From the NCBI RefSeq assembly GCF_003334765.1, contig NZ_QOWT01000135.1: a stretch of DNA of 335 nt; one strand, 5' to 3'. Positions 1-335 of this stretch are shown one piece after another. Every line of letters starts with the position of its first letter. The stretch's first letter is position 1. The translations under genes were made by a program, and so were the position numbers. The stretch comes from Escherichia coli. GTDB taxonomy: Bacteria > Pseudomonadota > Gammaproteobacteria > Enterobacterales > Enterobacteriaceae. The notes below the pieces were generated by a model. The model had not been told where the DNA came from. It did not search any database and saw only the letters and a program-made list of their open reading frames with translations.

Positions 1-117
1 TACAGTCATCATGCCTGTCGTACGGAGTGTTATGCCATGACGGTCCATTATTACCGGCTGCGGGATTACGCCCTGCAACATCCGGAATACGACGCCATTA
101 TGCGCATTATTGACTGA
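1..117 (+). CDS. 3' end of upstream CDS (5'-partial; 38 codons + TGA stop at 115-117); probable antirestriction protein of the ArdB/KlcA family (YfjX/YafX-like)
   Basis: Frame 1 is open from position 1 to the TGA at 115-117 and translates to YSHHACRTECYAMTVHYYRLRDYALQHPEYDAIMRIID*. The C-terminal pattern (Y-x-x-L-R-x-x-A-x-x-HPE-x-x-AI-x-R-x-ID) matches my recollection of ArdB/KlcA-type antirestriction C-termini. Its position immediately upstream of a RadC-like gene matches the known CP4-island gene order. Family assignment is from memory, not a search. Confidence 0.6.
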   Translation, partial: YSHHACRTECYAMTVHYYRLRDYALQHPEYDAIMRIID

Positions 118-124
118 AAGGGGG
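117..124 (+). promoter_or_regulatory. Shine-Dalgarno / ribosome-binding site for the downstream RadC-like CDS
   Basis: G-rich purine tract AAAGGGGG at 117-124, overlapping the last base of the upstream stop codon. The spacer from the GGGG core to the ATG at 133 is 8 nt, within the usual 5-9 nt range. A second AGGA at 126-129 is only 3 nt from the ATG, probably too close to act as the main SD. Confidence 0.5.
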
Positions 125-132
125 CAGGAACA

Positions 133-335
133 ATGCAACAGATTTCCTTTCTGCCCGGAGAAATGACGCCCGGCGAGCGCAGTCTCATTCAGCGGGCCCT
201 GAAAACCCTGGACCGCCATCTTCATGAACCCGGCGTGGCCTTCACCTCCACCCGTGCGGCACGGGAATGGCTGATTCTGAACATGGCGGGACTGGAGCGT
301 GAAGAATTCCGGGTGCTGTATCTGAATAACCAGAA
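133..335 (+). CDS. yeeS: RadC-like JAB-domain protein (UPF0758 family; YeeS/YkfG/YfjY paralog group), N-terminal 67 codons, 3'-partial (continues beyond window)
   Basis: ATG at 133-135 is preceded by an SD and opens a frame with no stop to the window end. Translation: MQQISFLPGEMTPGERSLIQRALKTLDRHLHEPGVAFTSTRAAREWLILNMAGLEREEFRVLYLNNQ. I recognise this as the N-terminal region of the E. coli prophage-encoded RadC-like proteins; the JAB metal-binding motif (HNHPSG…) lies downstream and is not visible here. Which paralog (yeeS, ykfG, yfjY or a non-K-12 homolog) cannot be resolved from 200 bp; the symbol is given as the family representative only. Confidence 0.85.
   Translation, partial: MQQISFLPGEMTPGERSLIQRALKTLDRHLHEPGVAFTSTRAAREWLILNMAGLEREEFRVLYLNNQ

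Follow-up and report, generated by a model that had tools for sequence, protein, structure and literature searches.

A 335-nucleotide stretch of Escherichia coli DNA (the window) was originally predicted to contain part of a RadC-like gene from a family with several near-identical copies per genome, each in a different CP4-like island. The locus raises two questions: whether so short a fragment can be assigned to one island, and whether copies in different islands recombine with one another. The window is the boundary between the antirestriction and RadC genes of the "yee" cassette, which is carried in tRNA-linked islands.

Genes of the window and membership of the RadC family

Positions 1 to 117 (plus strand) hold the 3' end of an antirestriction gene (ArdB/KlcA type, PF03230), which translation and annotation identify as the last 38 codons followed by a TGA stop at positions 115 to 117. 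The 38 C-terminal residues in the window are YSHHACRTECYAMTVHYYRLRDYALQHPEYDAIMRIID, followed by the stop. The full antirestriction coding sequence is 486 nt in strain NRZ14408, in which it is annotated at 19632 to 20117 of the pheV locus (L001), and the Pfam assignment PF03230 is given on its precomputed record. A 15-nt intergenic spacer follows (positions 118 to 132, plus strand), delimited by the gene coordinates, and a reading of its sequence revealed a Shine-Dalgarno-like AGGAA at positions 126 to 130. The remainder of the window, positions 133 to 335 on the plus strand, is the 5' part of a RadC-like JAB/MPN gene of the YeeS type. Of the 477 nt of this gene, which encodes 158 amino acids, the window contains the initial 203 (67 codons plus 2 nt). 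The ATG at positions 133 to 135 starts a reading frame that stays open through the end of the window (67 codons), and the N-terminal sequence of the protein in the window is MQQISFLPGEMTPGERSLIQRALKTLDRHL. In the exact-match genome, the 477-nt coding sequence is annotated as "RadC family protein" (L001, the NRZ14408 pheV locus, 20133 to 20609). The antirestriction and RadC-like genes are co-directional, which is consistent with co-transcription, and the sequence suggests a putative operon.

The 67 residues encoded in the window gave no family match on their own in a profile search; they lie mostly upstream of the RadC domain, residues 1 to 37 preceding the Pfam domain. The full protein from the exact-match genome matched Pfam RadC, PF04002 (E value, 7.3e-45; residues 38 to 157; model positions 2 to 121 of 121), and TIGR00608 (149 bits against a cutoff of 133.85). 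The predicted RadC-like gene at positions 133 to 335 was correct in its coordinates, and its family is confirmed by these two models. The JAMM metal-binding motif, HxHx7Sx2D, is present as HNHPSGEVTPSKAD in the full translation, downstream of the window. The full-length RadC equivalog model of the YicR type, NF000642, scored 161 bits, below its cutoff of 180, and the alignment covered only model positions 88 to 211 of 212. Because the alignment is confined to the C-terminal 60% and the score falls below the equivalog cutoff, the window gene is a short, island-type RadC. The island protein has the RadC JAB Pfam domain and the JAMM motif in common with chromosomal RadC of the YicR type but, at 158 amino acids, is without the N-terminal part of the latter. 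YfjY (renamed LfgB), a paralog with 71% DNA identity, reportedly degrades the antitoxin MqsA as a zinc protease of the JAB/MPN type (PMC10846083). On this indirect evidence, the window protein may have metalloprotease or isopeptidase activity.

Copy number and placement of the fragment

In order to determine the copy number of this region, the window was compared by megablast with 5,426 complete E. coli genomes. Matches were found at 12,828 places in 4,790 of them, with 1 to 13 places per genome. At E values of 1e-110 or below, corresponding to about 89% identity or better over the full length, there were 12,354 places in 4,430 of the 5,426 genomes (median, 3; maximum, 13). The identities of copies other than the best in a genome were bracketed by repeat searches at stricter E values, calibrated at ~46-fold per mismatch from matches with 3, 4, and 5 mismatches. 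Strain NRZ14408 had 4 places at E ≤ 1e-110 and 1 at E ≤ 5e-146 (95% or better), and strain TUM9803 had 8 and 3, respectively. Sensitive blastn still found 4 places in NRZ14408. This multi-copy status is far beyond chance, and the places hold annotated homologs belonging to this cassette. A pattern scan of species-representative genomes returned 31 loci, many of them chance matches in unrelated phyla; none was labelled Escherichia coli, the Escherichia entries being E. albertii and Escherichia sp. ESNIH1 only. Relatives with 68 to 78% identity were found in Citrobacter, Kluyvera, Mixta, Kosakonia, and Enterobacter.

Three of the four NRZ14408 copies were located, those at selC and ileX by reasoning from K-12 synteny. 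The pheV copy (at 940,324, minus strand) is 100% identical to the window. The selC copy (73,809 to 74,143, minus strand) is 92.8% identical, with 24 mismatches, and sits at the distal end of a ~51-kb selC island, adjoining setC. The copy at ileX-mug (815,576 to 815,910, plus strand) is 92.2% identical, with 26 mismatches, and lies in a ~48-kb island between nfeF and tRNA-Ile/mug. The fourth copy was bracketed at about 89 to 95% identity by E-value titration. It was not found at pheU, leuX, aspV, thrW, serU, the four asn tRNAs, or the cobU/CP4-44 site of NRZ14408, and no further cassette turned up elsewhere in the selC and ileX islands of this strain. In other strains, copies are carried at pheU and in further islands.

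The original prediction was supported in part. It was right that the family is multi-copy, that its copies reside in different tRNA-linked islands, and that recombination occurs; NRZ14408 does not hold a single match free of paralogs above about 80% identity. However, it overstated how alike the copies in the source genome are. Instead of copies that are near-identical (98% or better), the two located paralogs are the 92.8% and 92.2% copies described above, and one place alone reaches 95%.

Several features of the NRZ14408 chromosome were noted in the course of this survey. The pheV and ileX copies form inverted repeats ~124 kb apart, and the pheV and selC copies form direct repeats ~866 kb apart; these pairs could in principle be substrates for inversion or deletion. 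Two ISEc31 copies in the selC island (L068, 44516 to 45729, and L069, 25018 to 26231) split the antirestriction-RadC half of the cassette from the GTPase gene, which is ~30 kb away, and this suggests that the selC cassette was split by an IS-mediated rearrangement. The region from 2,079,700 to 2,129,900 (L066 to L067) holds a conjugative-type element at an asn tRNA, with VirB-type secretion genes, MobC, and an integrase. The cobU site, occupied by CP4-44 in K-12, is empty of an island and instead carries the pdu operon.

Exact matches to all 335 bp were confined, among the 5,426 complete genomes, to strains NRZ14408 and TUM9803, the former present as CP158426 and LT599825 with identical coordinates. 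Together with three draft assemblies and contig L039, which looks like a further NRZ14408 assembly, these three complete-genome records bring the exact matches to seven, all in the same pheV-kps context. Because all exact matches lie in pheV-kps and only one NRZ14408 place reaches 95%, the full window places uniquely at pheV-kps, and the expectation that it would not do so failed for the intact fragment. For the RadC part alone, the same expectation held across strains. Positions 133 to 335 were matched at 99% or better at 350 places in 307 genomes: a single place each in NRZ14408 and TUM9803, 2 to 5 copies in some other genomes, and never more than 5. The exact 158-amino-acid protein was found in at least three contexts, namely, pheV-kps, an island adjoining mug-rpoD (L043), and another beside an SNF2 helicase gene (L041). 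In these three contexts, positions 133 to 335 are base for base the same as in the window, and all 5 to 6 SNPs fall at positions 12 to 57. Across strains, therefore, an island cannot be identified from the RadC part by itself.

Cassette organization and island context

The cassette has the order GTPase, Ag43, DUF905, DUF932, antirestriction, RadC, DUF987, CbeA, CbtA, DUF5983, DUF957, and DUF4942. In all exact-match contexts, the kps capsule genes and then yghD come after the DUF4942 end. The core order of antirestriction, RadC, DUF987, CbeA-type antitoxin, and CbtA-type toxin is also found in the ileX and selC copies and in K-12 loci. The pheV island of NRZ14408 spans about 920.8 to 971.7 kb (~51 kb), with yghD at its far end. 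The pheV tRNA lies at 971,752 to 971,827 and the integrase at 970,292 to 971,554, which therefore places the window at the tRNA-distal end of the island. This is the layout of a tRNA-integrated island of the P4-integrase type, with an integrase beside the tRNA 3' end and core genes bounding the element, the integrase type being taken from the annotation alone. The selC island has the same integrase/tRNA layout as that at pheV, and in the ileX island of NRZ14408 the integrase is at the end far from the tRNA.

The term "CP4-like" could be taken to mean a prophage, and this reading was rejected. No phage structural genes were found in the 51-kb pheV island of NRZ14408, and phage genomes essentially lack the cassette, with a match in 1 of 50,697 records. 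"CP4-like" should be read as denoting an integrative island, not a prophage. The sole matching phage record, OR844783.1 (Escherichia phage ECO111 5-P), is an unannotated 3.2-kb sequence with 94.3% identity to the window and is probably not a phage genome. Plasmid records with the cassette are rare as well (59 of 72,556), and several of them are chromosome-sized. The PLSDB "plasmid" records H201, H206, H209, and others that carry the cassette are 0.8 to 4.9 Mb in length, and they resemble chromosomes, or pieces of chromosomes, entered as plasmids.

Other differences were seen around the cassette. The Ag43 gene of the NRZ14408 pheV cassette is split by an insertion of ISEc12, an IS21-family element (L001, 13823 to 16125), and it is intact in TUM9803 (L071, 4482 to 7328). 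One exact-match draft has a ~2.7-kb insertion with no called genes between the DUF932 and antirestriction genes (L036, 6785 to 9490); a group II intron reverse transcriptase occupies the corresponding place in L060 and L061. A trio of genes for an MFS transporter, an alpha-beta hydrolase, and a LysR protein is duplicated in NRZ14408, occurring beside thrW (L051, 2636 to 6112) and upstream of the pheV cassette (L001, 7859 to 11420). The thrW locus is without the cassette, and the match between the trios was judged from annotation only.

Comparison with K-12 places the window gene closest to yeeS (b2002, CP4-44), with 97.2% nucleotide identity over window positions 157 to 335 and, downstream, yeeT, cbeA, cbtA, and yeeW as in the window cassette. 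Unlike the window gene, yeeS of K-12 is 5' truncated: homology ends abruptly at window position 157, where yeeR sequence is found instead (L003, 8147 to 8481), and no antirestriction gene precedes it. Since yeeR sequence replaces the 5' end, K-12 YeeS starts at Met11 of the window protein. It also occupies a different chromosomal site, the cobU/CP4-44 site that holds pdu genes in NRZ14408. The YkfG locus (CP4-6) resembles the window cassette in having an antirestriction gene (YafX) followed by RadC-like, DUF987, antitoxin, and toxin genes, and the YfjY/LfgB locus (CP4-57) has the same arrangement with YfjX/LfgA. However, ykfG shares only 77% and yfjY/lfgB only 71% nucleotide identity with the window, and they are therefore distinct sub-lineages from the window gene.

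A recombination junction within the antirestriction gene

Upstream of position 57, DUF932 and most of the antirestriction gene form a block whose allele is rare, with only 11 records at about 99% identity or better (98.9 to 100%). A three-way informative-site test was carried out on NRZ14408 with two types taken as present-day proxies from other strains. Type A, represented by strains AH50 and GN03551, has the rare upstream allele at pheV-kps and a different RadC allele; type B, represented by strain 82.0311 (L044), is the common pheV-kps allele. A and B differ at 349 sites. NRZ14408 follows A at 136 consecutive sites, from -1484 to +57, and follows B from +78 on, with exceptions at one site (+438) and at a few sites scattered beyond +1800. 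This parental switch between +57 and +78 therefore sets the exchange point at window positions 58 to 77, inside the antirestriction gene, with the type A allele upstream and the type B allele downstream. The clustering of SNPs between the window and L044 was significant (Fisher P = 1.8e-13). No Chi site was present at the crossover.

A cluster of SNPs at positions 12 to 57 could in principle arise from a difference in rate, with a fast-evolving antirestriction gene next to a constrained RadC gene. Of the three genes, radC indeed varies least: its copies differ at no more than 19 of 477 nt, and the maxima are 49 of 486 nt for the antirestriction gene and 16 of 222 nt for DUF987. Nevertheless, A and B keep differing downstream of position 77, with 22 informative sites from +78 to +421 and 99 more up to +1786, and the source sequence goes cleanly from its 136 A sites to B. 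This pattern is a switch of parents, which differences in rate cannot yield, and 934 incompatible site pairs were found; we consider an explanation by rate highly improbable.

Misassembly of short-read drafts at repeated island modules is well known, and it might be argued on that general ground that collapsed or chimeric repeats created the mosaic or inflated the copy count. The same 335 bp and context were nonetheless recovered in independent assemblies (CP158426 and LT599825, both of NRZ14408, TUM9803, and three further assemblies), and the other copies have distinct, fully annotated flanks. We regard the chance of an assembly artefact as close to nil.

Recombination is evident throughout the cassette. 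The DUF987 protein look-up yielded ten further cassette contexts, which were used for the mosaic analysis; NRZ14408 was not among them. The Hudson-Kaplan minimum number of recombination events (Rmin) was 19 in 1,268 bp among 13 distinct sequences. In all, a small and non-random set of about 15 to 20 cassette copies was compared in detail. L058 and L056 have 0 mismatches in radC and 48 in the antirestriction gene. L044 (pheV) and L043 (ileX-mug), which lie in different islands, have 0, 0, and 9 mismatches in the antirestriction, radC, and DUF987 genes, respectively. NCBIfam gave no informative match for the flank of L056 or for the antirestriction protein.

We infer that RecA-type homologous recombination made the junction at positions 58 to 77. 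Paralogs in different islands had been predicted to be substrates for conversion or recombination with one another. As rejected candidates, the located selC and ileX paralogs now present in NRZ14408 are not the donors, their 24 to 26 mismatches being spread over both sides of the junction. All three sequences in the three-way test sit at pheV, so the junction is evidence for allelic exchange between strains no less than for conversion of one paralog by another. Recombination is real, as predicted, and the window itself spans a crossover at positions 58 to 77; both parental types of this junction are themselves pheV alleles.

Ectopic gene conversion between two islands in one cell, in place of allelic replacement from another strain, nevertheless has some evidence in its favor. 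The radC segment of type B is base for base the same at other islands in other strains (L043, ileX-mug; L041, SNF2 helicase). Furthermore, the pheV and selC cassettes of NRZ14408 (L001, 19500 to 23400, and L068, 40700 to 44640), are 89% identical overall, yet two tracts within this divergence of about 11% match perfectly, one of 271 bp (window +730 to +1000) and one of 268 bp (+1789 to +2056), and the latter includes the same truncated DUF5983 gene. Against this, both parental types of the junction are found at pheV-kps, neither of the located NRZ14408 paralogs fits either side of it, with mismatches across the whole window, and the fourth copy is below 95% identity. We therefore consider ectopic conversion rather unlikely as the origin of the junction, though its probability is appreciable.

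Recombination between two pheV-island allele lineages, with exchange at positions 58 to 77, very probably gave rise to the source allele. In the full explanation, which we hold with high confidence, the cassette is dispersed as paralogous copies in several P4-integrase-type islands per genome and evolves as a patchwork through homologous recombination; two pheV-island allele lineages recombined at positions 58 to 77 to give the allele seen in the source genome.

The switch to identity between L001 and L044 falls after position 57. A second, unrelated allele pair, L058/L053 and L056, has 48 differences and then none right after window position 66. It is conceivable, though we think it improbable, that antirestriction alleles are reshuffled against a conserved RadC-DUF987-toxin/antitoxin block at a recurrent crossover point in the final ~60 nt of the antirestriction gene (window positions about 58 to 77). 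If this were true, anti-defence specificities would be exchanged between islands as a unit.

The old recombination junction in the window is ordinary for this cassette. Earlier work has documented both the multi-copy nature of the "yee" modules and their mosaicism, and the current understanding of them is unchanged. P4-like elements have been described as "pervasively mosaic," with three homologous loci in K-12 (PMC5371832), and the diversity of the flu and yee modules in GI-pheV has been called "likely due to recombination" (PMC11537424). The "yee module" of that study resembles the one analyzed here in having a P4-type integrase at pheV, flu and yee modules, and a high SNP density through recombination. 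Unlike that study, which focused on ST131 and UPEC, the present analysis maps an exchange to 20 bp in the NRZ14408/TUM9803 allele, and this 20-bp crossover interval within the window is the one specific addition. Paralogy and recombination will affect SNP calling, cgMLST-style typing, and the assembly of these modules, and a short cassette fragment should be assigned to an island only with the help of its flanking sequence or of the antirestriction side of the window.
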